Shown: positions 37,737-54,318, numbered from the stretch's first letter. The stretch is DNA of 64,000 nt from an uncultured Trueperaceae bacterium (GCA_963815215.1 CAWFFU010000003.1:96001-160000); one strand, 5' to 3'. Notes: a model not told the origin generated them from the letters alone. Translations and numbers: made by a program.

Positions 37737-38477
37737 TCATACCCCCACGAAGCGTTCGATGATGTCGCGGGCGTCGCTCTCGCGTGTAGCGGTCTCGCCG
37801 GACACCTGGCCGTCACGGAGGAACACGATGCGGTCGGCGTGCATGGCGGCGTTGGGGTCGTGGGTGACCATCACCACGGTCCAGCCGAAGGTGTCGACGC
37901 CGTGTCTAAGTAGCTCCAGTACCTCGGTGCCGGTGTGGGTGTCGAGATTGCCGGTGGGCTCGTCGGCCAGCACCACCACGGGGTCGTTGATGAGGGCGCG
38001 CGCCAGCGCCACACGCTGACGCTGCCCCCCCGAGAGCTGGCGGGGACGGTGGTTGAGCCGGTCGGCGATGGCCAGCTGGTCCGCCAGGTCGTGGAGCCGT
38101 TGGGCCGCCTGGGCACCGCGCCCTGCGATCTCGGCCGGCAGCAGGATGTTCTCGCGTGCCGTTAGGTTGGGGATCAGTTCGAAGCTCTGGAACAGGAAGC
38201 CTAGCTTGGTGCGTCGTAGCGCCGTCAGCGCGTCGTCGTCCAGATCCACGGTGGCCTGACCGACGACCTCCACGCTGCCGCGGTCCGGCACATCGAGCAG
38301 CCCCAGAAGGTGCAGCAGGGTGCTCTTGCCGCTTCCGCTGGGCCCCATCACCGCCAGGAACTCGCCCGCCCTGACCGCCAGGTCGATGCCCTTCAGAGCG
38401 TCGATGGTGAGGTCGCCGAGGCGGTAGCTCTTGCTCAGCTCGCGCGCGCGTAGGACTGGACTGTCGTTCGTTGCCAT
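37737..38477 (-). CDS. ABC ATPase, LolD/MacB-like
   Basis: GPSGSGKST, FQSFELIP, LSGGQRQRVALARAL, ADEPTGNLD, VTHD. Confidence 0.92.
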   Translation of the reverse strand: MATNDSPVLRARELSKSYRLGDLTIDALKGIDLAVRAGEFLAVMGPSGSGKSTLLHLLGLLDVPDRGSVEVVGQATVDLDDDALTALRRTKLGFLFQSFELIPNLTARENILLPAEIAGRGAQAAQRLHDLADQLAIADRLNHRPRQLSGGQRQRVALARALINDPVVVLADEPTGNLDTHTGTEVLELLRHGVDTFGWTVVMVTHDPNAAMHADRIVFLRDGQVSGETATRESDARDIIERFVGV

Positions 38478-38479
38478 CG

Positions 38480-41047
38480 TTACTCCACGAATCCCAACGC
38501 TCGGGTGGGGGAGAGTTGAGCCGCACGTCGCGCCGGCAGGAGCGAAGCGAGCAGGCCCACCAGGGGGGATGCCACCAGGGCCAGACCCACCAGGGTCCAG
38601 TCGATCGCCGGCGTCAGCAGGAAGCCGGTCAGGGCGCTCGCGCCCGCGCTGATGACCCGCGCAAGGAGCAACCCGAAGGCCACGCCGAGCACGGCGCCCA
38701 CGAAAGTGACCACCATACCCTCGGAGGCGATGAGACGCCTCACGCCGCCGCGCGTCATCCCGACCGTGCGCAGCACAGCGATCTCATGGCTGCGGCTCAC
38801 GAGGTTCATGCCAAGCGTGTTGGCCACGCCCAGTGCGGCGACCAGCACGGCGATCAACAGCAGCATGTTGGTGGTCTGGAAGGACCGTTGGGTCAGCCGC
38901 AGGATGGCACTCCGGTAGTCGGCGTTGAGGGTGGCGTCCAGATGGAGCCCGGGGAAGGCCGACAACAGTTCCCGGCGCACCTGGTGTGGATCGGCGCCCG
39001 GCTTGTCGGCGATGACGAATAGATCGGGTGACCCGCCCCCGAACTCGGGCAGGTCGTGGATGCTGCCCACCACCGTCTCGCCGCCTCCGGTGAAGTCGAC
39101 CACCACGCCGGCCACCGGGAACTCCCGGAAGCCGTCGACCGTCCGCAGCCGGATGGTGTCGCCCTTCTTGATGCCGTACCTGTCGCGCATGGTGTTGGCC
39201 ACCAGGACCTGGCCACCCTTGGACAGAGCATGGAAGCCCTCGAGATTGTTCCCCTGGCCCTGGATGTACTGGAAGCGGCCGAAGCCGCCGTTGGGATCGA
39301 AACGCTGCGGGTCGACCAGGATCATGGCGATGGAGCGCCCGCGCCCACCTCCCTGCGGCTCGAAGCGGACCACCCGGATCCCCACACCGCTGGCCACTTT
39401 CACACCCGGAAGCTGCTGGGCCCGCTGCTCGAAGTCGTCGGGGAAGCTCACCGGCGAGGTCACGAAGACATCGCCCACGATGGTGGTGTCGACCCAGGAG
39501 GTGATGGCCCGGTTGATCCCGGCGACCATCGAGCCGACGCCGATGATCAGGCCGGTGCCCACTGCCACGGTCCCGATGGCTACCCCGTTGCGGGCGGCGT
39601 TGCGCAGGGCGAAGTTGCTTCCCAGACGGCCCGAGGTGCCGAAGAGGCGCACCAGAAGGGGAGTGAACAGCGCCAGCGCAGGGCGCAGCAGGCTGGGCGT
39701 GGCCATCGCGACGCCGACGAAGAACACGGCCATGGCGGTGCCGCTGGCGACGAGTGCCAGGTACCCCGACCACGGCAGCACACTCAGGACCACGCCCAGC
39801 GCCAGAAGGCTCCAACCGAGCACCGCCTGGCGCGGCGGGGCCGCTTCCTCCGCATTCCGACCGGCCGCGATGGGCGGTGTGCGCGAGGCGTTCCGGGCCG
39901 GAAGCACGCCGGCGGCGAGCGAGACCAGGACGCCGACGCCGGAGGCCAGGGCCACGCTCCGGACCGGGATCACCAAGGTGCGGAAATCGAACCCCAGGCT
40001 GACGGCGTTCATGCGGGTGATGACGTAGGCCAGCCCCACCCCGAGCAGCAGGCCCATCAGCACGCCCACCAGGCTCAGCGCCGCTGCTTCGTACAGCGCC
40101 AGTCGCTGAACGTCACCGCGCGTCATGCAGATGGTGCGCAGCAGGGCGTACTCGCGCGTCCGCTCCACGACCGAGGCCATGAACGTGTTGTAGGCCATGA
40201 AGCCGCCCAACGCTAGCAGCGTCACGGCCAGTACGGACAGTCCGGACTGCAAGGTATCGACGATGCCCGAGGCCACGTTGCCGGACACGGCGGGGTAGGT
40301 CACGGTCAGGTCCTGCGAAAGGGAGGGCAGGCGCGCTTCGATACGGGCCCGCACGTCCTCCACGGGAACCGACGGATCGACCAGGACCTCGATGTGCGAC
40401 GCCCGCCCCTGCATGTGCAGGATGACCCGCAAGTCCTGGATGGCGATGATTCCCACGCGTCCGCCGTTGGTGCTGGCGAGGCCGTAGCCGTCGTCGAGGA
40501 GCCCGGTCACGGTGAGTGGCACGTCGCCGAAGCTGGTCGCGAAGCGGACGGTGTCACCCACCGCGATGCCGCGCTCCTGGGCGAACCCCTGGGCGATGGC
40601 GACGCCGTCCGAGCCGGGTTGGGGCAGCGCGCCCTGGGCCAGCTTGGCCGGCAGGTCGGTCGGGACGGTGGTGACGCGGCCGCTGAGTTGGAAGCCGGTG
40701 TCGACGCCCGGGATGATCGACTTCTGGAAGTCCTGGATGGCGCGCACGGGTTCGGCGCGGGTGTTCAGAACGGGGTACGCGGCCTTCACTCCGGACATCT
40801 TGCGGACCAGGTCGAGAGCGGGACCGTCTTCGAACACGGCTCGCCCTCCCGCGCCCGGCGTCACCAGCAGGTCGGCCTTCCCCGAGGCCGCCTGCAGCGC
40901 ACCGCGCACGTTGGCCTCGACGTTGGCACCGACCGAGAGCGTGGTCAGCACCGCCGCGATGCCGATGCCCACGCCGAGGACGGTGGCAAGGCTGCGCCAG
41001 GGGTGCCGGAGCAGGTTCAGGAGGGCCAATCGACGCAGCGCGGTCAC
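38480..41047 (-). CDS. FtsX/MacB-type ABC permease (duplicated periplasmic + FtsX architecture)
   Basis: RSLATVLGVGIGIA, SVVERTREYALLR..M, SRSHEIAVLRTVGMT and two LPAR.A ends. Confidence 0.88.
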   Translation of the reverse strand: MTALRRLALLNLLRHPWRSLATVLGVGIGIAAVLTTLSVGANVEANVRGALQAASGKADLLVTPGAGGRAVFEDGPALDLVRKMSGVKAAYPVLNTRAEPVRAIQDFQKSIIPGVDTGFQLSGRVTTVPTDLPAKLAQGALPQPGSDGVAIAQGFAQERGIAVGDTVRFATSFGDVPLTVTGLLDDGYGLASTNGGRVGIIAIQDLRVILHMQGRASHIEVLVDPSVPVEDVRARIEARLPSLSQDLTVTYPAVSGNVASGIVDTLQSGLSVLAVTLLALGGFMAYNTFMASVVERTREYALLRTICMTRGDVQRLALYEAAALSLVGVLMGLLLGVGLAYVITRMNAVSLGFDFRTLVIPVRSVALASGVGVLVSLAAGVLPARNASRTPPIAAGRNAEEAAPPRQAVLGWSLLALGVVLSVLPWSGYLALVASGTAMAVFFVGVAMATPSLLRPALALFTPLLVRLFGTSGRLGSNFALRNAARNGVAIGTVAVGTGLIIGVGSMVAGINRAITSWVDTTIVGDVFVTSPVSFPDDFEQRAQQLPGVKVASGVGIRVVRFEPQGGGRGRSIAMILVDPQRFDPNGGFGRFQYIQGQGNNLEGFHALSKGGQVLVANTMRDRYGIKKGDTIRLRTVDGFREFPVAGVVVDFTGGGETVVGSIHDLPEFGGGSPDLFVIADKPGADPHQVRRELLSAFPGLHLDATLNADYRSAILRLTQRSFQTTNMLLLIAVLVAALGVANTLGMNLVSRSHEIAVLRTVGMTRGGVRRLIASEGMVVTFVGAVLGVAFGLLLARVISAGASALTGFLLTPAIDWTLVGLALVASPLVGLLASLLPARRAAQLSPTRALGFVE

Positions 41048-41145
41048 GTCCTCCAGTGTACCGTCGCCGCGCCGCCTCCGCAGGCTCGGGGGACCGTCAC
41101 CCAGCCGAGGCGCTCCTCACGGCGCCGGCGGTAGAATCGGCCGAA

Positions 41146-42375
41146 ATGCGTATCGCTTACGTCACCGATGAGGCGTATCCCGGGTTCGGCGGGCAGGCCA
41201 CCGCCACGGAGGCGCACGTCCGGGCCCTGGCGGACCTCGGCCACGAGCTCCACGTGGTGGTCGGACGGCAGCGCGGTCAGACCGAGCCCCCTGCGGGCGT
41301 GCGGCTGTCGACCCTGCCGGTGTTCCCGTTGGGATCGCTGTCGCACATCGCGTTGCCCCGCAAGAGCGTGCTGGCCCCGGTACTGGACTGGGCCGACATC
41401 GTGCATATCAATCTTCCCGGTCCGTTGGCTGCGGCCACCATGCGTCTGGCCCGTAGACGCGGCCTCCCGGTGGTGATGGGGCTCCACATCCAGGAGCAGA
41501 ACACGTCGATGCACCTACTCGGGCCGCTGCGCCCGATCTTGGAGGGCATCCTGCATCGCTTCTACCGGAGGCTCTTCGGCGAGGCCGACTGTGTCACGGC
41601 TCCTACGGCGTTCGCCGGACGGCTCGCGGGGAGCTACGCGCCGCCCCGCATCGAAGTGGTGTCCAACGGCCTCGATCCGTTCACCGAAGGGCCCGGCTTC
41701 GACGAGGAGGTCGGTACCCTGCGACGCGAGTTGCTCGCAGGTGGCGACGACGTAGTGGTGTCGTACGTGGGCCGACTCTACCCCGAGAAGCATCCCGAAG
41801 AGCTCGTTGCGTTGCTGGCTGCCGCACGCGAGCGCGGGTCGAAGGCGGTGCTGGCGGTGGCGGGACGCGGGCCGATGAGCGAGCGCCTGGTCGAGCTGGC
41901 GCGCCGCGCCGGGGTCGCAGACCACGTGCGGCTCCTGGGCTTCGTCGAAGAACGTCGCAAACGTGCGTTACTTCGCGCCACGGATGTGTTCCTGATGCCC
42001 TCCGAGGTGGAACTCCAGAGCATCGCGACCATGGAGGCCATGAGCGCCGGATGCCCCATCCTCACCGCCGACTACCCTACGAGCGCCGTACCGGATCTGG
42101 TGAAGGAGTGTGGAGCCGGCGTCGCCTACCCGGCGGGGCGACCCGATCGAGGGGCGCAGCTGCTGGTGGAGATGCTGGCCGACGAGGGGGGGATGACGCG
42201 CTACCGGCGGGCGGCCCTCGAGTCGGCCGGCTCGTTCGAGCTACCGGCCATCGGGCGCCGTCTCGCGGCGATCTACGAGGAGCTCATCGCCGGTCACGGC
42301 ACGCCGGGCACGGCACGCCGCCCGCGGGATCGACGGTTCACCCGGGGCGAGGCGCCGCTGCCGGGACGCTCCTGA
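41146..42375 (+). CDS. GT4 glycosyltransferase, glycolipid (diacylglycerol alpha-glucosyltransferase-like) subgroup
   Basis: MRIAYVTD..YP..GG, SNGLD, YVGRLYPEK, FLMPSEVELQSIATMEAMSAG; TAGAAT 8 nt before the ATG. Confidence 0.85.
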   Translation: MRIAYVTDEAYPGFGGQATATEAHVRALADLGHELHVVVGRQRGQTEPPAGVRLSTLPVFPLGSLSHIALPRKSVLAPVLDWADIVHINLPGPLAAATMRLARRRGLPVVMGLHIQEQNTSMHLLGPLRPILEGILHRFYRRLFGEADCVTAPTAFAGRLAGSYAPPRIEVVSNGLDPFTEGPGFDEEVGTLRRELLAGGDDVVVSYVGRLYPEKHPEELVALLAAARERGSKAVLAVAGRGPMSERLVELARRAGVADHVRLLGFVEERRKRALLRATDVFLMPSEVELQSIATMEAMSAGCPILTADYPTSAVPDLVKECGAGVAYPAGRPDRGAQLLVEMLADEGGMTRYRRAALESAGSFELPAIGRRLAAIYEELIAGHGTPGTARRPRDRRFTRGEAPLPGRS

Positions 42376-42399: not shown

Positions 42400-43389
42400 T
42401 CATCCCGTCTCCTGGGCGCGTCGCGTCACCAGGTAGCCACCGAGCAGCGGGCCGAGCAGGAAGATCGAGTAGAAGGTCACCAACCGCCACAGCAGCACCA
42501 CACCCGGGACCGACGTACCGCCCCCCCGAGCGATCAGCACGTAGGAGATGCCCAGCTCGAAGAAGCCGCTTCCTCCCGGCGTGGGGACGAAGGTCGACAT
42601 CACCACGACCACCATCTGGGCCGCTTCGATGACGGGGAGCGACACCATCACTCCCAGCCCCCGTGCGAGGAAGAACAGGATCGAGAAGAAGCTGATCCAG
42701 GAGGCGGCCGTGACGGCCTGCAGCGCGAGGTAGAAGCCGAGCGGCGCGTTCTTGAACAGCCGATTCGACTCCAACATCGTCTCTACGAACCGCAGCCCCT
42801 GCCTGCGCCAGCGGATCAGAGGGCCGCGCAGGATCCAGCGTGCGATCGGCTCCAGCCAGGCCAGGCGGAACTGCACCAGGTAGGCGACCGCCGCTGACAG
42901 AACCACGGTGAGCGCTCCCAACGCCAGCCAGGCGGCTCCCTGCGGGTACAGGCCGAGCGCGTAGAGCATCCCCAGCGCGATGGGCAGGCCCCAGGTGTGG
43001 AACAGCGCGTCGGCGCCGAACACGGCCACGCCCACCGCCCACGCGACCCCCGGTGGCAGCTTCTGGCCCTGCAGGGCCAGAGCCAGGGCGGGCGTCGAGC
43101 CGCTGCCGCCGGGCGTCACGGTGGCGCTGAACATGCCGAGGATGTGGGCGCGAAGGGCGTGGAACAGCGGCAGCCGGTAACCGAGCCGCCGGCACATGTA
43201 GATGAGGCGCACGGCGGCCATGGTGAACGCGCCCAGCAGACCTCCGAGGGCCGCCAGCGCGTACGTCCACGGGAGCTGCCGGATGATGGTCAGGTCCTGC
43301 ACCTTGCCGACGCGGAAGACGACCCAGGCGAGCCCCAACGCGCTGAGCACCATCGACACGATGAGCGAGCGCAGGACGGTCCTGTTCAA
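42400..43389 (-). CDS. Flippase-like / LPG-synthase TM (UPF0104) membrane protein
   Basis: FSATVTPGGSG, FVPTPGGSGFFE, LLWRLVTFY; TTG start overlaps the upstream TGA; GGAGG RBS. Confidence 0.85.
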   Translation of the reverse strand: MNRTVLRSLIVSMVLSALGLAWVVFRVGKVQDLTIIRQLPWTYALAALGGLLGAFTMAAVRLIYMCRRLGYRLPLFHALRAHILGMFSATVTPGGSGSTPALALALQGQKLPPGVAWAVGVAVFGADALFHTWGLPIALGMLYALGLYPQGAAWLALGALTVVLSAAVAYLVQFRLAWLEPIARWILRGPLIRWRRQGLRFVETMLESNRLFKNAPLGFYLALQAVTAASWISFFSILFFLARGLGVMVSLPVIEAAQMVVVVMSTFVPTPGGSGFFELGISYVLIARGGGTSVPGVVLLWRLVTFYSIFLLGPLLGGYLVTRRAQETG

Positions 43390-44561
43390 GGAGCCTCCGT
43401 CAAGTCCGCCAGGTGCGCAGCGATGGCGAGCGTCCCGGGCCGGAACCCCAAGGCTGCGACGCGCTCCTGCCAGGTGCGAAGCGGCGCACGGTCCTCGCAC
43501 AGGGGCGCGAGCAGCGCCACGACGTCGCGCGGCCGGGGCACATAGCCGCCGATGCCGTGCTGCGTGCAGTAGTCGAGGTTGCGCTTCTCGTTCGGAGCCA
43601 CGTAGCTGGTGTGGAAGATAGGCCGTCCCAGGGCCAACGCCTCGAAGGTGGAGGCCGCGCCCGCTTTGCCGATCACCAGATCACTGGCTGCGATCCACTC
43701 GGGCATGTTGGTGGCGAAGCCCACGACCTGCAGGCGGGTCCGCCCGCCGGCCGCGGCGTGGGCGTCGGCCAGTTGCTGCAGGCGCGCTCGGAGCTGCTCG
43801 TTGCGGCCCGTCACGACCACGTACTGCAGGTCGAGATCGGCCGCGAGCACGGCGCCGGCGATGCCCTCGACGTTGCCTCCGATGCCCTCGCCTCCCGGCG
43901 TGTGGAGCACGGTGAGACGGCCGGCGTCGAGGCCGAGGCTACGGCGCGCGGCCGCGAGGGTGGGGACCTCGTCCACGAACGCCAGGCCGAGCGGGTAGCC
44001 GAAGATCCGCAGGCGCTCCGCGGGCACGCCCTTGGCGTTCAGCAGCGCGCGCGCTTCATCGCTGGCCACCACGATCTCGTCGACGTCCCGGACCGCCCAC
44101 AGGGCGTGGCCGTCGAACGGATCGGTATCGATGCCCACCAGCGTGGCATCGAACTCACCCCGACGCCGGGCCATGGCGGCCGCGAGGAGCGGCATGAAGT
44201 GCACGCCCACCACCAGATCGTAGCCCTGAGCGCGAACGAAGGCGGCCAGCCTCCGGCTGAAGCCCTTCAGCATCCATGCCTGGACCGCCTGCGTCCAGGT
44301 CACCGGGATCACGCGGTCGAGAAGGTTCTGGAGCACGAAGGTGACGCGCGGATGGGCGAGCATCCACTTCCAGCTCTGCTTGTGGCGACGATCCAACGCT
44401 TGCTCGCCGAGATGGTGCATGATGTCGAGCACGTCGATGTCGAAGCGGTCCGGCCAGCTCCGTTGGAGGGCCGCCTGCAGAGCCATGGCCGGGGCGCGGT
44501 GTCCGCCGCCGGCTTCGATCATGGCGATGAGGATGTGCGGGCGCCCGCCGCCGGGGGTCAT
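43386..44561 (-). CDS. MGDG synthase / UgtP-type GT28 glycosyltransferase
   Basis: AGGGHRAPA, VGVHF, DTD, GYP, PGGEG.G, VTGRN, GFATNM..W..ASDLVIGKAGAASTFEA, NEKRN. Confidence 0.88.
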   Translation of the reverse strand: MTPGGGRPHILIAMIEAGGGHRAPAMALQAALQRSWPDRFDIDVLDIMHHLGEQALDRRHKQSWKWMLAHPRVTFVLQNLLDRVIPVTWTQAVQAWMLKGFSRRLAAFVRAQGYDLVVGVHFMPLLAAAMARRRGEFDATLVGIDTDPFDGHALWAVRDVDEIVVASDEARALLNAKGVPAERLRIFGYPLGLAFVDEVPTLAAARRSLGLDAGRLTVLHTPGGEGIGGNVEGIAGAVLAADLDLQYVVVTGRNEQLRARLQQLADAHAAAGGRTRLQVVGFATNMPEWIAASDLVIGKAGAASTFEALALGRPIFHTSYVAPNEKRNLDYCTQHGIGGYVPRPRDVVALLAPLCEDRAPLRTWQERVAALGFRPGTLAIAAHLADLTEAP

Positions 44562-44586
44562 GGCGTCGTCTCCGGTTTCTTGCCCG

Positions 44587-45687
44587 TCACACGTCCGGCA
44601 GCGTCTCGAAGGTCTTGAGCGCCTGAGCGACCACCTGGTCCATGTTGTAGTAGCGGTACGTGCCGAGGCGGCCGGCGAAGGTGACATGCTCGAGCTCGGC
44701 GGCCATGGCGCGGTACGCCTCGTAGAGCGCCCGGTTCTCGGGTCTGGGAACCGGATAGTAGGGGTCGCCTTCGGCCCGCGGGTGCTCGTACACGAGCACC
44801 GACTTGGCGTGACGCTGGCCTGTCAGGTGCTTCATCTCGGTGCGCCGCGTGTACGCGTAGTCGTTCGGGTAGTTGGTGGTGCCGGTCTCCTGCACCTGCT
44901 CCTGGTCGTGGGTGACGAACTCGAACTCCAACGAGCGGTAGGGCAGGGGACCGAGCTCGTGTTGGAAGTAGCCGTCGATGGGTCCGGTGTAGATCAGGTG
45001 CTTGTGAGGGACGAGGTCGGCCACCTCGCGGTAATCGGTATTGAGCATGACCTTGATGTTGGGGTGCCGCAGCATGCGGCGGAACATCGCCGTGTAGCCG
45101 TGCAGCGGCATGGCCTGGTAGGTGTCCGTGAAGTAGCGATCGTCGCGATTGGTGCGTACCGGCACCCGGGCGGTCACGGAGGCGTCGAGCTCCTTGGGCT
45201 CGAGTCCCCACTGCTTCTTGGTGTAACCGCGGAAGAACTTCTCGAACAGCTCCTGGCCGACCCGGGCCACCACCACGTCCTCGGACGTCACGATGCGCTC
45301 GCGCTTGATCGCCCGGGCCGCGAAGAACGCCTCCACCTCGGGAGCCGACAGGTCGAGGTTGTACAGCGTGTTGATGGTGTCGAGGTTGATGGGGATGGGC
45401 ACCAGCTGGCCGTCGACCAGGGCTCGCACGCGGTGCTGATAGGGGCGCCAGGCGGTGAAGCCGGACAGGTAATCGAAGACGCTCTTGGCGTTGGTATGGA
45501 AGATGTGCGGCCCGTAGCGGTGGACCAGCACGCCGTCGTCGTCGTGCTCGTCGTAGGCGTTGCCCGCGATGTGATCGCGGCGGTCCACCACCAGCACGCG
45601 GCCGCCACGCTGGGTGGCGATCCGTTCGGCGAGGACGGCTCCCGAGAAGCCAGCGCCCACGATGAGGAAGTCGAATCCCTCGCTCAT
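44587..45687 (-). CDS. glf: UDP-galactopyranose mutase
   Basis: LIVGAGFSG, HIAGNAYD, HRYGPHIFHTN, GYTKKQWG, YFTDTYQAMP, PYYP, GRLGTYRYYNMDQ. Confidence 0.97.
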   Translation of the reverse strand: MSEGFDFLIVGAGFSGAVLAERIATQRGGRVLVVDRRDHIAGNAYDEHDDDGVLVHRYGPHIFHTNAKSVFDYLSGFTAWRPYQHRVRALVDGQLVPIPINLDTINTLYNLDLSAPEVEAFFAARAIKRERIVTSEDVVVARVGQELFEKFFRGYTKKQWGLEPKELDASVTARVPVRTNRDDRYFTDTYQAMPLHGYTAMFRRMLRHPNIKVMLNTDYREVADLVPHKHLIYTGPIDGYFQHELGPLPYRSLEFEFVTHDQEQVQETGTTNYPNDYAYTRRTEMKHLTGQRHAKSVLVYEHPRAEGDPYYPVPRPENRALYEAYRAMAAELEHVTFAGRLGTYRYYNMDQVVAQALKTFETLPDV

Positions 45688-45741
45688 GTCGCGCCACCAT
45701 ACCATCGCTGCCGACGCGTCCGCGGGGTGTGGTGGGGGCAG

Positions 45742-46728
45742 CTAGGTGGGGGTCAACGCGCCGACCGAGCGTCGCAACCCCTCGCGCCAGGACACCACCG
45801 GACGGTAGCCGAGCTCCTCCACCGCATGCCGGATGCTGAAGTGCACGTCCCGCGTCATCAGGCCGGCACGGTAGCGGGTCATGGGGGGCTCGTTGCGGGG
45901 GAAGAGGGCGCCCCAGGTCGCCTCGACACCACGCGCCAGAGCCTTGGTGGGGGTGCCCGGGAGGCGCAGCCGCGGCGGTCGCTCGCCCAACAGCCGCGCC
46001 AGTTCGGAGAGCAACTCGCGCCAGCTCGGCATGCCGTCGTCGGCGATGACGTAGGTCCGGTGGGCGGCCTCGGGCCGTTCCAACGCAAGCCGTACCCCGA
46101 GCGCGAAGTTCTCGGCATAGGCGGTGTTGATGACGCTGTCGCCGCTTCCCACCATCGGCAGCAGGCCCTGCTCGAGGGCGCGCACGACGCGGCGGAGGTT
46201 CGGGTCGCGGGAGCCGAACGGCCACAGCCCGGGACGCACGATCACACCTTCGATCCCACCGACCCCGCGGACCAGGTCCTCGGCCATGATCTTGGAGTGC
46301 GCATACGGCTCGCGGACGTTGTCGCGAGGGACCTCGCGCGGGTCAGCGTCGCGGAAGCCGCTGTAGCGATGGACGGCGACGCTCGAGATGAGCACGAATC
46401 GGCTCACGCCGACGTGTACGGCTTCCTTCAGGAGCTGCTCCGTGCCCACCACGTTGGTCCGGTAGAAGGCGTCCCACGGTCCCCAGTCGGCAACGCGCGC
46501 CGCCGCGTGCACCACGGCATCGATGCCGTCGCAGGTGCCGACGAGGGCGCCCTCTCGACTGAGGTCGGCGCGCTCGATCTGCAGGCTCCGCTCGTCGAGC
46601 ACGGCGCCAAGGTTGGCGATCGTCCCCCAGGGCGACACCAGGGCGCGCACCTGATGGCCGGCGGCCAGCAGGTGTTCGCTGATGTGGCTCCCTAGGAAGC
46701 CATGGGCACCGGTAACCAGAACGTTCAT
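45742..46728 (-). CDS. Extended SDR / NAD-dependent epimerase-dehydratase (candidate ceramide or 3-ketosphinganine reductase)
   Basis: VLVTGAHGFLG, HAAA, NVVGT, ISS, YAHSK; the reductase role is inferred from operon context. Confidence 0.75.
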   Translation of the reverse strand: MNVLVTGAHGFLGSHISEHLLAAGHQVRALVSPWGTIANLGAVLDERSLQIERADLSREGALVGTCDGIDAVVHAAARVADWGPWDAFYRTNVVGTEQLLKEAVHVGVSRFVLISSVAVHRYSGFRDADPREVPRDNVREPYAHSKIMAEDLVRGVGGIEGVIVRPGLWPFGSRDPNLRRVVRALEQGLLPMVGSGDSVINTAYAENFALGVRLALERPEAAHRTYVIADDGMPSWRELLSELARLLGERPPRLRLPGTPTKALARGVEATWGALFPRNEPPMTRYRAGLMTRDVHFSIRHAVEELGYRPVVSWREGLRRSVGALTPT

Positions 46729-46803
46729 GTCAGCCGCCGCAGCCCAAGCCTACCAGGAAGGGGGTCCGGGCGGTCCTTCCGGGCGCGTCGGCCGGCCACG
46801 ACG

Positions 46804-47538
46804 TCAACCGTGGAACAGCAGGCCCTGGTGGTAGAGAACGAACACATCGGTGGACAGGCCGATGACCAGGTGGATGATGGTGGAGTACAGCACCGACCGG
46901 CTTCGCAGCGCCAGCACACCGAACAGCAGACTGGCGGGCAGGGCGGCCAGCAGTTCGGTCATGGGCTTGCCGAGATGGATGAGCGTGGCCGCCAGCGACT
47001 GCACCCAGATGGCTTGCGGCGCGCCCCAGGCGTCAGCGACGATGCGCTGCAGGAAGCCGCGGTAGAAGAACTCGAAGGCCACGTAGTACAGGCCGTAGAT
47101 CACGGCCCACAGCCCGATGTTGGCGAGGCTTCGACCTACCCACGCGCCAGCCCACGGGTAGGTCGCCTCGAGCCCTTTGTCGAAGCTGCCCAGGTACATC
47201 AGCGGGATGACGATCACGGCGCCGCCGAGCGCCGCCGAGAGGCCGAAGCGCACGTCGCCCAGGCGGAGCCCCACGTGCTTGAGGTCGATCCCCACCACAG
47301 CCAGCAGCAACGCGGGCAGCGCCAGCAGGAACACCAGCGACCACGCCACCGTGGTGACCCCCGTCAGCAGGGTGCGCGGTTGGAACTGCATCAGCGCAGG
47401 CCCGGGACTGGCGACGTACCAGAAGCCGGCCTGCAGGAGCACGGCGGCCGTCAGCAGGAACCACAGCCGCGCGTGCTTCCGGTCGAAGAGCTGCGCCAGG
47501 TCGGCGAACACCACACCGACCGAACGCAGCGGGTTCAC
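46804..47538 (-). CDS. CPBP (Abi/CAAX protease) family membrane protein
   Basis: FEFFYRGFL, IHLGKP..E and IIH motifs; multiple TM segments; GTGA overlap with the upstream gene. Confidence 0.8.
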   Translation of the reverse strand: MNPLRSVGVVFADLAQLFDRKHARLWFLLTAAVLLQAGFWYVASPGPALMQFQPRTLLTGVTTVAWSLVFLLALPALLLAVVGIDLKHVGLRLGDVRFGLSAALGGAVIVIPLMYLGSFDKGLEATYPWAGAWVGRSLANIGLWAVIYGLYYVAFEFFYRGFLQRIVADAWGAPQAIWVQSLAATLIHLGKPMTELLAALPASLLFGVLALRSRSVLYSTIIHLVIGLSTDVFVLYHQGLLFHG

Positions 47539-48644
47539 AGCGCCTTCTGGTACATGCGGTAGGTCTTGTAGAGCTCGGCGCCCGCCGCCTCGATCCCGCG
47601 GTTCATGGCGTCGTTGTCCTCCAGCACCCAGCTGCACTCGCCGCCGGTGTAGCCGATGGCGCGACCGCGCCTGGCCGTCTCGGCGATCATCAGCAGCTCG
47701 AAGCCCTTGTGGCGGTATTCGGGCAGCACCCCGAGGATGGCCAAGCGCCCCTGAGTGATGATCTTCTTGCGGTTGAGCAGGTGGAAGATCCCGAAGGGGA
47801 TGAGCCGGCCGTTGAACTTGGCGAGGACCTGGTTGAGGTCGGGGATGGTGATCGACAGCCCGACGGTCTCGCCCTTGTACTCCAGGAACAGCGCCAGCTC
47901 GGGCTCCATGATCATCTTGAGGTCGTTGGCCAGATAGTCGAACTCGGCGTCGGTGCCGCGCACCTGCCCCCAGTTCTCCTCCCACGCCACGGTGTAGAGG
48001 TGCTTGAGCAGGCCGACCTCGCGCTTGAACTGCTTCATGTCGGCGGGTCGCACGGTGACGTCGTAGCGTTTGCGGATGCGGTCGGCCATCCGCTCCAAGT
48101 GCTCGGTGGCGCCGTGGCGGATGTCGATCTTCCAGGCGTAGAGGTCCTTGACCTTCTGGTAGCCGGCGGCCTCCGCGAAGCCCAGGTAGTCCGCCGGATT
48201 CTGCAGCATCATGATGAACGGTCTGGTTTCGAAGGCGTCGATCTGGAAGCCCGCGCCGTCGTCCATGGTGGGGTTCGCGGGACCGCGGACGGTGTCCCTA
48301 CCGAGGGCCCGCGCCTCGGCCTCGACGGCCCCGTAGAGTGCCGAGGCGACCTCGGCGTCCTCGGCCTCGAAGAAGCCGAAGAACACCAGGTTGTCGCCGA
48401 ACTGTTCGTTGTGGGCGTCATTGTCGATACAGGCGACGCGACCGACGATGCGTCCGTCGCGTTCGGCTAGGTAGGGGGTGATCCGACCGTGCTGGAAGAA
48501 GGGGTTCTTCTTCGGATTCAGTTTGTCGAACTCCCCCATGCGGAGCGGAGGGACGAAGGTCGGATCACCCCGGTACTTGTCGTAGACATAATCAATGAAG
48601 CGACCCAGGTCGCGTTTCGTCGCGACCTTCTTGATCTCGACCAT
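47535..48644 (-). CDS. GNAT-fold N-acyltransferase of the YghO / bacterial ceramide synthase (bCerS)-like family
   Basis: FIDY...YRGDP.FVPPL, NPFF, GRIVGRVA, FGFFE, VRGP.NP, NP..Y, NWG, PDLN, LGVLPEYR.KG, ECSWVLEDN..M, YKTYRMY pattern. Confidence 0.75.
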   Translation of the reverse strand: MVEIKKVATKRDLGRFIDYVYDKYRGDPTFVPPLRMGEFDKLNPKKNPFFQHGRITPYLAERDGRIVGRVACIDNDAHNEQFGDNLVFFGFFEAEDAEVASALYGAVEAEARALGRDTVRGPANPTMDDGAGFQIDAFETRPFIMMLQNPADYLGFAEAAGYQKVKDLYAWKIDIRHGATEHLERMADRIRKRYDVTVRPADMKQFKREVGLLKHLYTVAWEENWGQVRGTDAEFDYLANDLKMIMEPELALFLEYKGETVGLSITIPDLNQVLAKFNGRLIPFGIFHLLNRKKIITQGRLAILGVLPEYRHKGFELLMIAETARRGRAIGYTGGECSWVLEDNDAMNRGIEAAGAELYKTYRMYQKAL

Positions 48645-48668
48645 GGCTGATCACCCCTTTTTCGGCTG

Positions 48669-49925
48669 TCAGATTACACCAAGCCCCTTGCCCACCGTCT
48701 CGAATGCGGTGAGCAGGAGGTCGAGCTCCTCGGCGCTGTGGTTCGCATTGACGCTGGTGCGGATGATCGAGTGCCCGGGAGCGACGCCGGGCGGGAGCGC
48801 GGGGGTGGTGAACACGCCCGCGTCCCACAGCCCCTTCCAGAAGGCCAGCGCACGGTCGTCCTCACCCACCAGCACGGGCACGATCGGCGTCTCGGAGCCG
48901 AGCGTGTCGAACCCCAGGCGCTGCATGCCGGTGCGGAAACGCTTGACGTTCTTCCACAGTTGCACGCGGTGCTCGGGCTCGGTCTCCATGATGTCGAGCG
49001 CGGCCAGTGCGGCTGCCATCTGCATGGCGGGCAGCGCGGCGGTGAAGATGAACGGGCGCGCGTGGTGCTTGACGAACTGCACCACCTTGCGGTCGCCGGC
49101 CATGAAGCCGCCCACGCTGGCGAACGACTTCGAGAAGGTTCCGATGATGACGTCGACCTCGTCCTCGAGACCGAAATGCTCGCCGGTGCCGCGGCCGCTG
49201 TCGCCCAGAACGCCGCTGGCGTGGGCGTCGTCGATCAGCAGACGCGCGCCGTAGCGGCGCTTCACATCGACCAGGCCCGGCAGGTCCACGATGTGACCGC
49301 TCATGGAGAAGACGCCGTCGGACACGATGATGCGCCCGCCCGGCTTGTCCGCGTCCGCGGCGAGCAGGCGCTCGAGGTGCTCGAGGTCGTTGTGGTCGTA
49401 CTTCCGCAACGTCGCGTACGAGAGCCGCGCGGCGTCGTACAGCGACGCGTGGTTCTCACGGTCGTAGTACAGGATGTCGTGCCGCCCTGCGAGGGCGCTC
49501 ACCACCGACAGGCAGCCCAGGTAGCCGGCGCTGAAGGTGAGGGCTGCCTCCTTGTTGAGGAAGCTCGCGAGGCGTTGCTCGAGCGTCTCATGGAGCGTCA
49601 GGGTGCCGGTCAGGAAACGCGAGCCGGTGCAGCTCGTGCCGAAGTCGTCGAGGGCGTCGCGGGCGGCGCTCTTGAGCCGTTCGTCCTGCGTGAGGCCCAG
49701 GTAGTCGTTCGAACCGGTGATCACCATCTCCCGGCCGTTGGCGCGGACGGTGCCGCCATGCTGGGCGGCGATGGGCTTGAAGTAGGGGTGCAGGCCCGCC
49801 GATTCGGCCAGTTCGGCTCGATTGAACGCGAAGGCCTTGGTGAAGGCGTCTCGAGCACGCGCCGAGCGCTGCGCGGCGTCGTCCTCGATGACCGGGTTCT
49901 GGCGGGTGTCAACGACCTCAGACAA
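48669..49925 (-). CDS. spt: Alpha-oxoamine synthase, serine palmitoyltransferase-like (alternative start 49937)
   Basis: HPYFKPI, GSNDYLGLT, GTSCTGSRFLTGT, NHASLYD, DGVFSM, DDAH, GTFSKSFASVGG, RPFIFTAALP; GGAGG before TTG 49925. Confidence 0.72.
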   Translation of the reverse strand: MSEVVDTRQNPVIEDDAAQRSARARDAFTKAFAFNRAELAESAGLHPYFKPIAAQHGGTVRANGREMVITGSNDYLGLTQDERLKSAARDALDDFGTSCTGSRFLTGTLTLHETLEQRLASFLNKEAALTFSAGYLGCLSVVSALAGRHDILYYDRENHASLYDAARLSYATLRKYDHNDLEHLERLLAADADKPGGRIIVSDGVFSMSGHIVDLPGLVDVKRRYGARLLIDDAHASGVLGDSGRGTGEHFGLEDEVDVIIGTFSKSFASVGGFMAGDRKVVQFVKHHARPFIFTAALPAMQMAAALAALDIMETEPEHRVQLWKNVKRFRTGMQRLGFDTLGSETPIVPVLVGEDDRALAFWKGLWDAGVFTTPALPPGVAPGHSIIRTSVNANHSAEELDLLLTAFETVGKGLGVI

Positions 49926-49960
49926 GACTTCCTCCAACGCGGCTACAAGCCAATTAGGGC

Positions 49961-49969: not shown

Positions 49970-50243
49970 CGCACCCGTCGGAGTCCAGCACGGGCGCGGC
50001 GGGTCGTCACACCCTACGCAAATGGACTCGAATGCGCAAGCGAGATCCGCGTCATGGCCCCGGCTCGGGCCTCGAGCGGGGGACGCCCAGAGGGCTCCCG
50101 GGTCCGGGGCCCGGGCGGATCGGCCCGCGCCCCGGCTGTGTGGGCTTGTGACCCAGTCGTCTGCGCGCGTCACGACGGGCGCGTTATACTTGCGCCGTGG
50201 CCGTCACAACCTACGTGCCGTGCATGCTTGGAGTGCCGGAAGG

Positions 50244-50780
50244 ATGAGCGCATTGAATCTGACGTCGCCCGGTGCCCTGACGCGTCCCGCCGATGCCTCG
50301 GACGCCACCTTGGTCCACCGCCTCTACGAGAAGACCCCTGGCTATTTCGACGTGATCTCCATCCCTGTCCCGACCCTGGCCGAGGTCAGGACGGACCTCG
50401 AAACCGCGGTCCGGGACGCCCGCAGGCACACCGAGCTGGTGCTCCTGCCGCCCGCTGAGCGGGCGCCGCGCGACGCGGAGCTGACGGACCCGGTGAGCGG
50501 TCGTCAGGTCGTCGGCTACCTCGATTACAAGGTCGACTACCCGGACACCGGGGACGCCACCGTCAACCTGCTCCTCATCGAGGGCGATCTGCAAGGACGC
50601 GGCATCGGCGGCCACTGCGTGCGGGATCTCGAGGGGCGCCTTCGCGGCCGCGTGCGCCGCGTGCTCGCCAGCATCTACGGGCAGAACCCACGTGCCCGCC
50701 GCTTCTGGGAGAGGCTGGGGTACGCCTTCGCGATCGATGCGAAGCCCGTGCTCGACTGGTACGCCAAGCAGCTCGTCTGA
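50244..50780 (+). CDS. GNAT N-acetyltransferase
   Basis: LLLIEGDLQGRGIG and NPRARRFWERLGY motifs. Confidence 0.8.
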   Translation: MSALNLTSPGALTRPADASDATLVHRLYEKTPGYFDVISIPVPTLAEVRTDLETAVRDARRHTELVLLPPAERAPRDAELTDPVSGRQVVGYLDYKVDYPDTGDATVNLLLIEGDLQGRGIGGHCVRDLEGRLRGRVRRVLASIYGQNPRARRFWERLGYAFAIDAKPVLDWYAKQLV

Positions 50781-50858
50781 CCCCTGTCCGGTCGCGCCGG
50801 ACCGCCCTCGAGGCCGGCCGGGCATGCCGTGCGAGGGGAGCGGTGTATCCTTTCCGTC

Positions 50859-51761
50859 ATGAAGCATGTCGTGAGTGTCTCGCTCGGTTCCGCCACGCGT
50901 GACACCGACCAGACCGTGACCATCCTCGGGGAGCAGGTCCACCTTGAGCGGCGGGGGACGCAGGGAGATTTCGACGCCGCCCGCGCTCTCATCGGCGAGC
51001 TCGACGGCCGGGTCGACGCCATCGGGCTCGGCGGCATCGACCTGTTCTTGCCGGTGGGCGCCAGGCGCTACTACTTCCGCGACGCCCGCAGCCTCGCTGC
51101 GGCGGCCACGCGGACGCCCGTGGTGTGCGGCGCCGGGCTGAAGAACAGCCTGGAGCGGGCGATGGTAAGGGCGCTCGCCGGCCGGTTGTCATGGCAGGGT
51201 CGGAAGGTGTTGATGGTCTCGGCGCTCGACCGCTTCGGTATGGCCGAGGAGCTGGTGGCGCACGGTGCCCATGTGCTGTTCGGCGACTTCATCTTCTCGC
51301 TGGGGTTGCCCATCCCCCTGTACCGCCTGGGCACGCTGCACGCCCTGGCCACGGTTCTGTTGCCGGTGTTCGTCAGGTTGCCGTTCAAGTGGCTCTACCC
51401 GGTGGGCGCGAGCCAGGAGACCGAGGCGACCACCGAGCGTTTCGAACGCTACTATCGCTGGGCCGACGTGGTGGCCGGCGATTGGCACTACATCCGGCGT
51501 TACGCGCCCGCCGACCTTCATGGCAAGACGGTGCTCACCAACACCACCACCGAGGCGGACGTGGCCTTCCTGAAGGCGCGCGGCGTGCGCACGTTGATCA
51601 CCACCACGCCGCGCTTCGACGGCCGCAGCGTGGGAACGAACCTGTTGGAGGCCGCGTTCGTCGCCATCGACGGGGGCACGGGCGAGCTCTCCGCCGAACG
51701 CTACCGTGCGATGATCGAGGCCGCGGAGCTCGAGCCGTCCGTGCTCGAGCTCGCGTCCTGA
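50859..51761 (+). CDS. Conserved hypothetical protein (family often labelled 'quinate 5-dehydrogenase')
   Basis: VVSVSLGS..RD, LDGRVDAIGLGGID, GLKNSLER, DRFGMA, TNTTT, TTPRFDGRSVGTN; recognised from Thermus/Firmicutes homologues. Confidence 0.65.
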   Translation: MKHVVSVSLGSATRDTDQTVTILGEQVHLERRGTQGDFDAARALIGELDGRVDAIGLGGIDLFLPVGARRYYFRDARSLAAAATRTPVVCGAGLKNSLERAMVRALAGRLSWQGRKVLMVSALDRFGMAEELVAHGAHVLFGDFIFSLGLPIPLYRLGTLHALATVLLPVFVRLPFKWLYPVGASQETEATTERFERYYRWADVVAGDWHYIRRYAPADLHGKTVLTNTTTEADVAFLKARGVRTLITTTPRFDGRSVGTNLLEAAFVAIDGGTGELSAERYRAMIEAAELEPSVLELAS

Positions 51762-51907: not shown

Positions 51908-52464
51908 ATGATCAGTGTGACGGACCTGCGCAACGGGACGAAGGTCGAGATGGACGGCGGCCTGTGGGAGTGCTTGGACTACCAGCACCAGAAGATCGGC
52001 AGGGGTGGCGCCAAGGTGCTCGGCAAGTTCCGCAGCCTGGAGAGCGGTTCGATCGTCGAGCGTACGTTCAGCGCCACGGAGAAGCTGCAGGACATCTTCA
52101 TCGACTATCGCCAGATGCAGTACCTGTTCGCCGACGGCGACCTGTACACCTTCATGGACATGGAGACGTTCGAGCAGCCCGTGTTGAGCCGCGACCAGAT
52201 CGGCGACACGGCCCGCTTCCTCAAGCCCAACCTGGAGGTGACGGTGGACTACTACCAGGGTAGGCCCCTCAAGGTCACGTTGCCCAACGTGGTCGAGCTC
52301 GAGATCACGAGGACCGATCCCGGCGTGCGCGGCGACACCGTGTCGGGCGGCAGCAAGCCTGCGCTGCTCGAGTCGGGGGCGAGCGTGAACGTACCCCTGT
52401 TCATCGAGCAGGGCGAGGTGATCCGCGTCGACACGCGCAGCGGCGAGTACCTGGGACGGGCCTG

Positions 52465-52465
<1 letters not shown>
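51908..52465 (+). CDS. efp: Translation elongation factor P
   Basis: DLRNG, QHQKIGRGGA, FMDMETFEQ, DPGVRGDT, VPLFI..GE.IRVDTRSGEYLGRA. Confidence 0.97.
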
Positions 52466-52962
<497 letters not shown>

Positions 52963-52980
52963 GGCTCGGGGACAGGCGCC

Positions 52981-54318
52981 GTGTTCCGGAAGATCCTGAT
53001 CGCCAACCGAGGCGAGATCGCCCTGCGCGTGCTTCGCGCCGCGCGCGAGCTCGGCATCCAGACGGTCGTGGTGTACTCGCAGGCCGACGAGAACTCGCTT
53101 CCCGTGTTGCTCGCCGACGAGGCGATCTGCATCGGGCCCGCGCCGGCCGCCGTGAGCTACCTCAACGTGCGCAACCTTCTCTCCGCGGCGCTGGTGACGG
53201 GTGCCGAAGCCATCCATCCCGGGTACGGCTTCCTGGCCGAGAACGCCGAGTTCGCCGAGAAGTGCGAGGAGCACAACCTCGTCTTCATCGGTCCTCGCGC
53301 CGAGACCATCCAGCGCATCGGCGACAAGGCCGCGGCCCGGCGGCTGGCTGAGGAGGCGGGGGTCCCGATCACGCCCGGCTCGCAGCCACTCAAGGACCTC
53401 GAGGCGGCGCACGCGTTCGCCCGGACCATCGGCTTCCCCCTCATCTTGAAGGCCTCGGCGGGCGGTGGCGGGCGTGGTATGCGCGTTGTCCACAGCTTCA
53501 ACGACTTGGAGCGCCAGTTCGTCAACGCTCAGGAGGAAGCGCGCGCCGCGTTCGGCAACCCCGAGCTCTACATGGAGAAGTACCTGGAGGAGCCCAAGCA
53601 CATCGAGGTTCAAGTGTTCGGGGACGGCCAGGGCAACGTCATCCACTTCTTCGAGCGCGACTGCTCGATCCAGCGGCGCTACCAGAAGATGCTCGAGGAG
53701 GCGCCGAGCATCGTCGATGACGATCTTCGAGAGCGCATCATCGAGTCCGCGGTGGCGCTGGCACGACACATCGAGTACCGCGGTGCCGGCACCTGCGAGT
53801 TCCTCGTCGATCGCGACGGCAACTTCTACTTCAGCGAGATGAACACGCGCATCCAGGTCGAGCACCCGGCGACCGAGATGGTCACCCGCTTCGACCTGGT
53901 CCAGGAGCAGTTCCGGGTAGCGGCCGGCATGGGGCTCTCGCTGGCCCAGGAGGACGTACGCCTGGAGGGACACGCCATCGAGGTGCGCGTCACCGCCGAA
54001 GACCCCGACCACGATTTCCGTCCTTCGGCGGGCATCATCAGCGACGTCCACTGGCCCGGCGGCCCCGGTATCCGCGTGGACTCGCACGTCTACGCGGGCT
54101 ACCGGATCCCGCCGAACTACGACAGCCTCATCGCCAAGATCATCGCCTGGGCGCCCACGCGGCAGGAGGCGATCGCCCGCATGGAGCGCGCTCTTCGCGA
54201 GACCGTCATCGAGGGGGTCAAGACCACCGTGCCGTTCCACCTCAAGGTGCTCGACAACGCCTTCTTCCGGCGTGGCGCGGTCTACACGAACTTCATCGCT
54301 CGGAGGATGTCCACGTGA
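52981..54318 (+). CDS. accC: Acetyl-CoA carboxylase biotin carboxylase
   Basis: ILIANRGEIA, HPGYGFLAEN, GGGGRGM, ERDCSIQRR, EMNTRIQVEH, YDSLIAK. Confidence 0.97.
   Translation: MFRKILIANRGEIALRVLRAARELGIQTVVVYSQADENSLPVLLADEAICIGPAPAAVSYLNVRNLLSAALVTGAEAIHPGYGFLAENAEFAEKCEEHNLVFIGPRAETIQRIGDKAAARRLAEEAGVPITPGSQPLKDLEAAHAFARTIGFPLILKASAGGGGRGMRVVHSFNDLERQFVNAQEEARAAFGNPELYMEKYLEEPKHIEVQVFGDGQGNVIHFFERDCSIQRRYQKMLEEAPSIVDDDLRERIIESAVALARHIEYRGAGTCEFLVDRDGNFYFSEMNTRIQVEHPATEMVTRFDLVQEQFRVAAGMGLSLAQEDVRLEGHAIEVRVTAEDPDHDFRPSAGIISDVHWPGGPGIRVDSHVYAGYRIPPNYDSLIAKIIAWAPTRQEAIARMERALRETVIEGVKTTVPFHLKVLDNAFFRRGAVYTNFIARRMST

Follow-up and report, generated by a model that had tools for sequence, protein, structure and literature searches.

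The bacterial route to sphingolipids, which relies on Spt, bCerS and CerR, has been defined only recently. In the ceramide pathway of Caulobacter, E. coli B and Sphingomonas, as set out in sections of PMC9386255 and PMC11087976, the genes are spt, acpR, aasR, epi (= CerR) and aca (= bCerS = YghO). Here, we analyzed a 64,000-nucleotide (nt) stretch of DNA, referred to in the following as the window, from an uncultured Trueperaceae bacterium (GCA_963815215.1 CAWFFU010000003.1:96001-160000; ≈69% G+C). Open reading frame (ORF) listing and family assignment identified seven co-oriented genes at positions 42400–49937 on the minus strand. The cluster shares with the described pathway an Spt-type α-oxoamine synthase (AOS), a YghO-type N-acyltransferase of the GNAT type and an epimerase-like short-chain dehydrogenase/reductase (SDR). 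On balance, we favor reading the seven genes as an operon for a glycosylated, (dihydro)ceramide-like, sphingolipid-type membrane lipid. What the sequence shows directly are family membership, homology, tree positions and synteny; each substrate, the lipid made and the sequence of reactions are inferred from these.

The gene content differs from that of the described clusters in several respects. The E. coli cluster (NZ_MG591698.1, 9000–24000) reads yghO | aasR (acyl-AMP ligase)–epi–acpR–spt | lptG–lptF, and the same genes of E. coli BL21 are listed in a section of PMC9386255. The Sphingomonas cluster contains genes, in this order, for an NAD(P)H-binding protein, an acyl carrier protein (ACP), an AOS, LptF, LptG, a desaturase and a GNAT. 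Unlike Caulobacter, E. coli and Sphingomonas, the window lacks a gene for a dedicated ACP or acyl-ACP synthetase, and the AOS in this respect resembles the non-Rhodobacteria SPT (serine palmitoyltransferase) subgroup described in part of PMC9386255, which likewise has no adjoining ACP. LptF/G paralogues, which adjoin the E. coli and Sphingomonas genes, are absent next to the window cluster, which instead has genes for a GT28 glycosyltransferase, a UDP-galactopyranose mutase (Glf), an MprF-TM-like flippase and a CPBP membrane protein. In Bacteroidota, the three genes for the core enzymes were reported as unclustered in a passage of PMC11334938, whereas in the window they are adjacent.

Between the AOS gene and the flippase gene, neighboring genes are separated by 24, 75, 36 and 25 nt at four junctions and overlap by 4 nt at the other two, in agreement with the initial annotation of the window, which had described seven co-oriented genes with 4-nt overlaps or gaps of ≈25–75 bp. 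Nowhere does the cluster leave space for an ACP gene. The G+C content of the cluster (0.66–0.71) was not unusual, and a promoter and terminator scan inside it gave no signal exceeding the shuffled expectation. Spurious ORFs are common at ≈69% G+C, and gene calls were therefore limited to ORFs with family support.

The first gene of the cluster (48669–49937, minus strand) encodes the AOS, a protein of 422 residues matching Aminotran_1_2 at 194.9 bits; the initial annotation had used another possible start, TTG at 49925. Its best NCBIfam match was SerpalmtaseCFB (NF047600, a Bacteroidota-type serine palmitoyltransferase) at 424.3 bits against a cut-off of 640, with bioF at 381 bits (cut-off 426) and Kbl at 348 bits. 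Among solved structures, the best match was the SPT of Sphingobacterium multivorum (8guh/3a2b), with 349.5 bits over residues 37–409. Thermus BioF/Kbl scored 288 bits, and proteobacterial SPTs and a cysteate-C-fatty acyltransferase scored ≈258–269 bits. The Schiff-base lysine motif GTFSKSFASVGGF aligned to GTFSKSLASLGGF in the S. multivorum SPT and to GTFSKSVGTVGGF in PDB entry 2x8u, and Thermus BioF/Kbl carries ATLSKAWAGIGGY at the same place. The GTFSKS portion was common to three SPT structures, and the longer GTFSKS..GGF pattern is also found in the Sphingobacterium enzyme. GTFSKS is typical of SPTs beyond the entries compared here.

Phylogenetic trees were built with annotated plasmid- and chromid-borne reference sequences (3 Spt, 4 Kbl, 2 BioF and 3 HemA). 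The Spt references, called Spt from their gene context, are counterparts from other strains than those assayed; the SPTs of E. coli BL21 and S. wittichii were assayed as enzymes, according to a section of PMC9386255. In the first tree, the window AOS formed one clade (100/98) with its relatives from Deinococcota and Rubrobacter, and this clade was sister to the Sphingomonas and Roseomonas Spt proteins (98/98). A second AOS encoded in the same genome fell with the Vibrio and Ralstonia Kbl proteins (100/100), and the housekeeping role is therefore already filled. In a second tree, which included the E. coli Spt and omitted six rows (four close relatives and two rows with long branches), a single branch (SH-aLRT 98) parted the Spt proteins and the window clade from Kbl, BioF and HemA. 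Joining the window AOS clade to Kbl, a grouping specified once the first tree was already known, was rejected in the approximately unbiased (AU) test (p 0.0045). The initial annotation had called the AOS SPT-type and had suggested a phylogeny against Spt, BioF, Kbl and HemA. Its placement with Spt rather than with BioF/Kbl, the best solved relatives and the GTFSKS lysine motif all bear this assignment out. The AOS is Spt-like, with serine as the likeliest predicted substrate.

We also considered that serine is not the substrate and that the AOS instead takes, for example, alanine, glycine, threonine or cysteate, leading not to a true sphingolipid but to a 1-deoxy, sulfonolipid-like or other non-canonical N-acyl long-chain amino-alcohol glycolipid. 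Such a specificity would be in keeping with an AOS that falls under all three NCBIfam Spt equivalog cut-offs and with the score of the cysteate-C-fatty acyltransferase structure (262 bits), which lies within the range of the proteobacterial SPTs (258–269 bits). Abundant bacterial 1-deoxysphingolipids are also reported in a passage of Ding et al. (PMC11334938). However, a bona fide serine palmitoyltransferase leads the solved matches by ≈60 bits, and the AOS groups with Spt in the trees. Furthermore, a free hydroxyl is required for a glycosyltransferase to attach a headgroup, and the C1-OH of a serine-derived base would supply one. We consider a non-serine substrate unlikely.

The GNAT gene (47535–48644, minus strand; 369 residues) directly follows and was assigned by its homology to YghO. 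The protein aligned over residues 1–369 with the annotated E. coli YghO at 32% identity (tblastn E 2e-53; blastp E 1.5e-63). Identities to other relatives were 30.5% for Sphingomonas parapaucimobilis and 37% for Roseomonas, both likewise along the entire protein, 27–32% for Bacteroides, Prevotella and Phocaeicola, and 55% for Rubrobacter radiotolerans, and blastp gave the same picture. General family models were less informative: Acetyltransf_1 of Pfam scored 19.8 bits, under its cut-off, and neither NCBIfam nor a sequence search of solved structures (best E 0.1) yielded a match. In the legend to Fig. 9 of PMC9386255, E. coli yghO (ECD_02850) is listed together with Caulobacter CC_1154 ("aca") as the ceramide N-acyltransferase. 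Full-length homology to YghO supports a YghO-type assignment, as put forward in the initial annotation, and the likeness to bCerS is drawn through YghO, based on that legend, rather than from the Caulobacter protein itself.

An AlphaFold2 model of the GNAT (pLDDT 82.9) had a tandem GNAT fold. The nearest solved folds were tandem-GNAT amine acyltransferases, namely 2wpw, a glucosamine N-acetyltransferase, and MshD, with TM ≈0.6. The predicted fold resembles that of amine N-acyltransferases, a similarity at the level of fold. The family is large, with 3779 proteins matching at E ≤ 0.001 among 8000 candidates scored, and a tblastn search of plasmid records with the GNAT matched 45 records. Look-alike clusters of ≈370-residue proteins were seen in Planctomycetota, Bacteroidota, Actinomycetota, Pseudomonadota and Thermodesulfobacteriota, which we take as a lead only. 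Divergent YghO-type GNAT paralogues (25–38% identity) were also present in Trueperaceae-family genomes (loci L102, L103 and L105, the first two in G322 and G324). Those at L102 and L103 again adjoin a small RimI-like GNAT gene, as does the window cluster.

Conservation of the cluster was assessed from a contig scan with a 20-sequence GNAT alignment, which matched 597 stretches, 213 of them encoding relatives. The best 80 of these 213 were taken as loci: 38 labeled Deinococcota (mostly Trueperaceae), 20 labeled Rubrobacteraceae, Rubrobacterales or Actinomycetota, and 22 labeled "uncultured bacterium". Neighboring genes were placed by tblastn with the window proteins and counted per assessable loci. 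An AOS gene lay directly upstream of the GNAT gene in 68 of 72 loci; of the other four, one had its AOS elsewhere and three had none within reach. Downstream on the same strand, the SDR was found in 53/61, the GT28 in 42/56 and the flippase in 33/50 loci. The cluster arrangement is not due to chance and is kept across loci labeled with two phyla. The initial annotation had called for a synteny survey and had proposed that the organism makes ceramide or another long-chain-base amide lipid. A ceramide-like lipid remains the best reading because the AOS–GNAT–SDR trio, the lipid glycosyltransferase and the flippase are conserved.

Within the phylum, the GNAT was present in 125 of 364 genomes (tallies that include one genome flagged as unpublished, G325). 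When broken down by coded family, it was found in 104/127 genomes of f1, to which the window belongs, in 19/19 of f3 and in 1/1 of f6, and was not found in f2 (0/125), f4 (0/23) or f5 (0/68). In f3, the GNAT (≈40% identity) did not adjoin an AOS in any of three loci, and a Spt-like AOS (57–60% identity) was encoded elsewhere in all three genomes, the other cluster genes not being nearby. Outside the phylum, plasmid 1 of the actinobacterium Rubrobacter radiotolerans (NZ_CP007515.1) has the same AOS–GNAT–SDR order as the window, with 69% identity for the AOS and 55% for the GNAT. Its SDR is of another type (31.6% identity) and is followed by an LTA (lipoteichoic acid)-synthase-family gene instead of CPBP, Glf or GT28. 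A gene of this family after the plasmid-borne trio suggests a phospho-headgroup variant. In this locus (L083, 7707–13299), the LTA-synthase-family gene, which is phosphoglycerol-transferase-like, stands in the place of the GT28, and immediately upstream there is a type I-D CRISPR-Cas block.

The SDR gene (45742–46728, minus strand) encodes a 328-residue extended SDR (Pfam Epimerase, 98.3 bits) that we propose as the 3-ketoreductase. It has a Rossmann motif, TGAHGFLGS, at residues 6–14 and a catalytic YxxxK motif, YAHSK, at residues 142–146. Its best NCBIfam matches were the OleD 2-alkyl-3-oxoalkanoate reductase (153.9 bits) and HpnA (131.4 bits), both under their cut-offs. Caulobacter "epi" (CC_1164) is equated with E. 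coli ECD_02852 in part of PMC9386255. The window SDR was only 26% identical to the E. coli epi/CerR homologue (E 4e-13) and 27.6% to the NAD(P)H-binding protein of Sphingomonas (E 9e-9), which places it in another, OleD/HpnA-like subfamily. The Rubrobacter-type SDR matched the same E. coli and Sphingomonas proteins at E 1e-27 and 5e-31, respectively. The initial annotation had described a CerR-like SDR. The extended SDR, with its Rossmann and YxxxK motifs, was confirmed, but it is not orthologous to CerR.

The location of the reductase may also differ. Caulobacter CerR is reported to be periplasmic in a section of PMC11087976, whereas the window SDR starts with the Rossmann motif: its N-terminus, MNVLVTGAHG, has the NAD-binding motif from the very start, and by inspection the protein looks cytoplasmic. 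Across the loci, the SDR slot was occupied by the window type in 40 and by another type in 20. The same slot being filled by SDRs of differing subfamilies argues for a needed reductase step, and the pattern fits a required keto-reduction carried out by non-orthologous enzymes. OleD-type enzymes reduce 2-substituted 3-oxo long-chain substrates, according to the NCBIfam family description, and an OleD/HpnA-like SDR is predicted to be chemically suited as a 3-ketoreductase.

The remaining four genes encode membrane and sugar functions. The CPBP gene (46804–47538, minus strand) encodes a 244-residue, Rce1-like polytopic membrane protein (PF02517, 40.8 bits vs. a cut-off of 22.4). The ORF as listed reaches 47985, an over-extension into the GNAT gene, and a GTG start at 47538 overlaps the GNAT stop by 4 nt. 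CPBP was found downstream of the GNAT in 38/68 assessable loci and, among loci named by title, only in Deinococcota-labeled ones. Three motifs, E..FYRG, H.GKP..E and H...G...D, were conserved across 42 CPBP homologues. The canonical CPBP motif is EExxxR. The window protein reads FEFFYRG, in which the first Glu is replaced, and it may be something other than a conventional protease.

The Glf gene (44587–45705, minus strand; 372 residues) matched TIGR00031 at 386.6 bits, above the cut-off of 303.75. It is followed by the GT28 gene (43386–44561, minus strand), encoding a 391-residue lipid glycosyltransferase resembling monogalactosyldiacylglycerol (MGDG) synthase; the ORF is open to 44687, with ATG 44561 as the likely start. 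The GT28 matched both PF06925 (MGDG_synth, 36.7 bits vs. 25) and PF04101 (Glyco_tran_28_C, 35.7 vs. 22). Its best PDB matches were Arabidopsis MGD1 (103.6 bits) and a processive diacylglycerol glucosyltransferase (65.9 bits), both of which glycosylate membrane lipids. A full-length Glf was encoded in only 4/80 loci (L001, L002, L004 and L074), with a partial copy in L029. In the loci with full-length Glf, the GT28 was 54–97% identical to that of the window, the lowest value being for an 89-residue fragment at the end of L074. The GT28 proteins of close relatives that lack Glf (L003 and L005) were 48–49% identical, yet their AOS, GNAT and SDR were 74–85% identical. The tracking of GT28 similarity with the presence of Glf suggests that the GT28 is a galactofuranose (Galf)-specific transferase in this genus.

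The last gene (42400–43389, minus strand) encodes a 329-residue flippase-like membrane protein (PF03706, LPG_synthase_TM, 92.3 bits vs. 33.4; TIGR00374, 81.3 vs. 43.2), which had no match in the PDB by sequence. Its ORF is open to 43500, and a TTG start at 43389 gives a 4-nt overlap with the GT28 gene. A convergent gene (41056–42375, plus strand) encodes a GT4 glycosyltransferase (Pfam Glycos_transf_1 and Glyco_transf_4), and a homologue was found near the cluster in 24/80 loci, including Rubrobacter-type ones (41–42% identity). It is a probable accessory enzyme adding a second sugar. The flippase and the GT4 also weakly matched the families of the GlcN-phosphatidylglycerol flippase and synthase (55 and 39 bits, respectively). 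The domains of the GT28 and flippase match those of MGDG synthase/UgtP-type enzymes and MprF-type flippases. Those enzymes act on diacylglycerol or phosphatidylglycerol derivatives, whereas a ceramide-like acceptor is proposed here.

This difference in acceptors raises the question of whether the locus consists of two unrelated modules, with AOS, GNAT and SDR making a soluble or signaling N-acyl amino ketone or alcohol, and Glf, GT28 and flippase, together with GT4, making a glycoglycerolipid from diacylglycerol. The use of diacylglycerol by the solved GT28 relatives and the weak GlcN-phosphatidylglycerol matches would agree with such a division, as would the dispersed AOS and GNAT genes of f3, near neither of which a GT28 or flippase was found, and the LTA-synthase-family gene that replaces GT28 on the R. 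radiotolerans plasmid. It is countered by the same-strand conservation of GT28 and flippase (42/56 and 33/50), which includes loci labeled Rubrobacteraceae or Actinomycetota, and by the 4-nt overlaps and short gaps, which indicate translational coupling along the whole cluster. We give the two-module explanation little credence.

In the pathway that we propose for a glycosylated ceramide-like lipid, the Spt-like AOS would first join an amino acid, most likely L-serine, to a fatty acyl thioester, yielding a 3-keto long-chain base. Because a dedicated ACP or acyl-ACP synthetase gene is absent, acyl-CoA or a housekeeping acyl-ACP probably serves as the thioester. The tandem GNAT would then attach an amide-linked acyl chain, and the putatively cytoplasmic OleD/HpnA-like SDR would reduce the 3-keto group, a step that could precede or follow N-acylation. 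The MGDG-synthase-like GT28 would add a hexose at the inner leaflet. The headgroup sugar in this genus may be galactofuranose, with UDP-Galf supplied via Glf, and the convergent GT4 may extend the headgroup with a second sugar. Finally, the MprF-TM-like protein would move the glycolipid outward.

Several observations weigh against this pathway. The AOS missed the cut-offs of all three Spt equivalog models, scoring 376.9 against 500 for NF047599 and 293.8 against 670 for NF047603 in addition to the shortfall for NF047600 given above. In pairwise BLAST, it scored slightly higher against Bacillus Kbl (290 bits, 39% identity) than against E. coli Spt (273 bits), and the AOS tree rests on only 3 Spt references, none from Bacteroidota. 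The SDR was rejected as a CerR orthologue, given its weak identity to CerR homologues and its best-matching families, OleD and HpnA. In the two g26 genomes that encode divergent GNATs (28–38% identity), an AOS was found in 0/2 at E 1e-30; YghO-type GNATs thus occur without AOS, and the family is therefore wider than ceramide or sphingolipid synthesis. Known MGDG-synthase-type enzymes act on diacylglycerol, not ceramide. Lastly, only uncharacterized glycolipids and phospholipids are described among the polar lipids of Truepera radiovictrix in the relevant section of PMC3072082.

Even so, the gene cluster is real and conserved and, as judged from its sequence, is most likely an operon for a sphingolipid-type glycolipid, which would extend the known bacterial pathway to a new lineage. 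Among the papers searched, with supplementary taxon tables of published surveys not included, no relevant one was found that ties sphingolipid synthesis to Deinococcus, Deinococcota, Rubrobacter or Truepera. The surprise is tempered because Spt-like genes have already been inferred in 38 phyla of one water column, according to a passage of Ding et al. 2024 (PMC11334938).

The distribution of the cluster bears on both its origin and its product. When the AOS tree was rooted with proteobacterial Spt, f1 and f3 formed one clade (SH-aLRT 99), with f3 as a long branch inside f1, and the Rubrobacter-type AOS branched below this clade; the outgroup branch was long. AOS identity between the two phyla, i.e., between the Trueperaceae and Rubrobacter types, was 66–72%, which together with the plasmid copy in R. 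radiotolerans points to inter-phylum transfer of the cluster, with no direction assigned given the long outgroup branch. A transfer into the family of the window alone, which had been considered in view of the lower identity of the f3 AOS (57–60%) compared with that of Rubrobacter (66–72%), was rejected in view of the single f1 + f3 clade.

Lipids with long-chain alkylamine or 1,2-diol backbones are known in Deinococcaceae and Thermaceae, and the initial annotation had offered their synthesis as an alternative role for these genes. Acyl compounds of T. radiovictrix with equivalent chain lengths (ECL) compatible with iso-C18:0 and iso-C15:0 1,2-diols, by ECL alone, are reported in a section of PMC3072082 and would suit this idea. 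The GNAT, however, is absent from f2, f4 and f5, which, judging by their size, are probably Deinococcaceae and Thermaceae, making the alternative unlikely. In addition, AOS chemistry yields 2-amino-3-oxo products, not alkylamines or 1,2-diols, and the cluster is common to Rubrobacteraceae. We regard an alkylamine or diol backbone as very improbable. A housekeeping BioF or Kbl role for the AOS, with only incidental clustering, is more improbable still: the bioF and Kbl models score only somewhat lower than the best Spt model and identity to Bacillus Kbl reaches 39%, but the genome has a separate Kbl-clade paralogue, the AU test rejects the Kbl grouping, no tdh or bio genes lie nearby, and adjacency to a YghO-type GNAT is kept in 68/72 loci.

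Trueperaceae and Rubrobacteraceae are radiation- and desiccation-tolerant extremophiles, the latter belonging to a Gram-positive actinobacterial lineage. If the cluster does specify a sphingolipid-type glycolipid, it would represent a compact, syntenic version of the pathway in extremophiles that can be grown in culture, among them Rubrobacter radiotolerans, R. taiwanensis and perhaps Truepera, and would place sphingolipid-type lipids in a Gram-positive lineage. It would also put a different reductase family at the CerR step and provide conserved candidates for the headgroup transferase and the missing flippase. A bacterial sphingolipid flippase is still unidentified according to the Caulobacter workers, in a section of PMC11087976, and the MprF-TM-like protein would be the first candidate for a bacterial (glyco)sphingolipid flippase. 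More tentatively, these elements might be combined: Trueperaceae and Rubrobacteraceae would share, by inter-phylum transfer, a self-contained glycosphingolipid operon with its own headgroup transferase and MprF-TM-like flippase, in which the SDR is a non-orthologous replacement of CerR, and the "1,2-diol" peaks of T. radiovictrix, assigned by retention only, could partly be long-chain bases. We consider this combined scenario possible, if doubtful.

Outside the window, genes for early lipid A synthesis form a block in the same genome (G000), on the plus strand of contig C3 (908981–913799), with LpxD, LpxC-like and LpxA genes within 4 kb. LpxD scored above its cut-off (301.6 bits), and the LpxC-like protein and LpxA were just under theirs (171.6 vs. 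187 and 229.2 vs. 231, respectively). LpxB was represented at most by a Pfam trace of 21.6 bits, and LpxK had no match in this genome. The LpxC model did not match the Thermus and Deinococcus control genomes. A lipid A-like pathway, if that is what this block reflects, would be unexpected for a Deinococcota genome. The initial annotation had assumed a diderm lacking lipopolysaccharide (LPS). This is now doubtful and, given the Lpx-like genes, should not be assumed for the lineage.

Upstream of the AOS gene and divergent from it, a small RimI-like GNAT gene (50022–50780, plus strand) adjoins the cluster; this neighbor was seen in 37/80 loci, the named ones all being Deinococcota-labeled. It is followed by an ORF (50829–51761, plus strand) with no Pfam or NCBIfam match but conserved in 26 loci, and by the gene for the biotin carboxylase AccC (52981–54318, plus strand). 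A long ORF on the minus strand (52252–54240, 662 residues) was rejected as spurious, as it is the antisense of the biotin carboxylase gene.

In E. coli, Sphingomonas and Roseomonas (loci L098, L084, L085 and L086), the yghO-type GNAT and spt genes lie beside LptF/LptG paralogues, a hint that sphingolipids may have an Lpt-like export route of their own. In Roseomonas, their neighbors also include a gene of the diacylglycerol kinase family and one for a CDP-alcohol phosphatidyltransferase. The window cluster is without LptF/G but has genes for a MacB/FtsX-type ABC transporter nearby (37737–41047, minus strand). These encode an ABC ATPase (37737–38477; ABC_tran, 112.8 bits) and a duplicated permease (38480–41047; Pfam FtsX and MacB_PCD). 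A homologue of the permease was present in 23/80 loci, and an association of this transporter with the cluster is possible.

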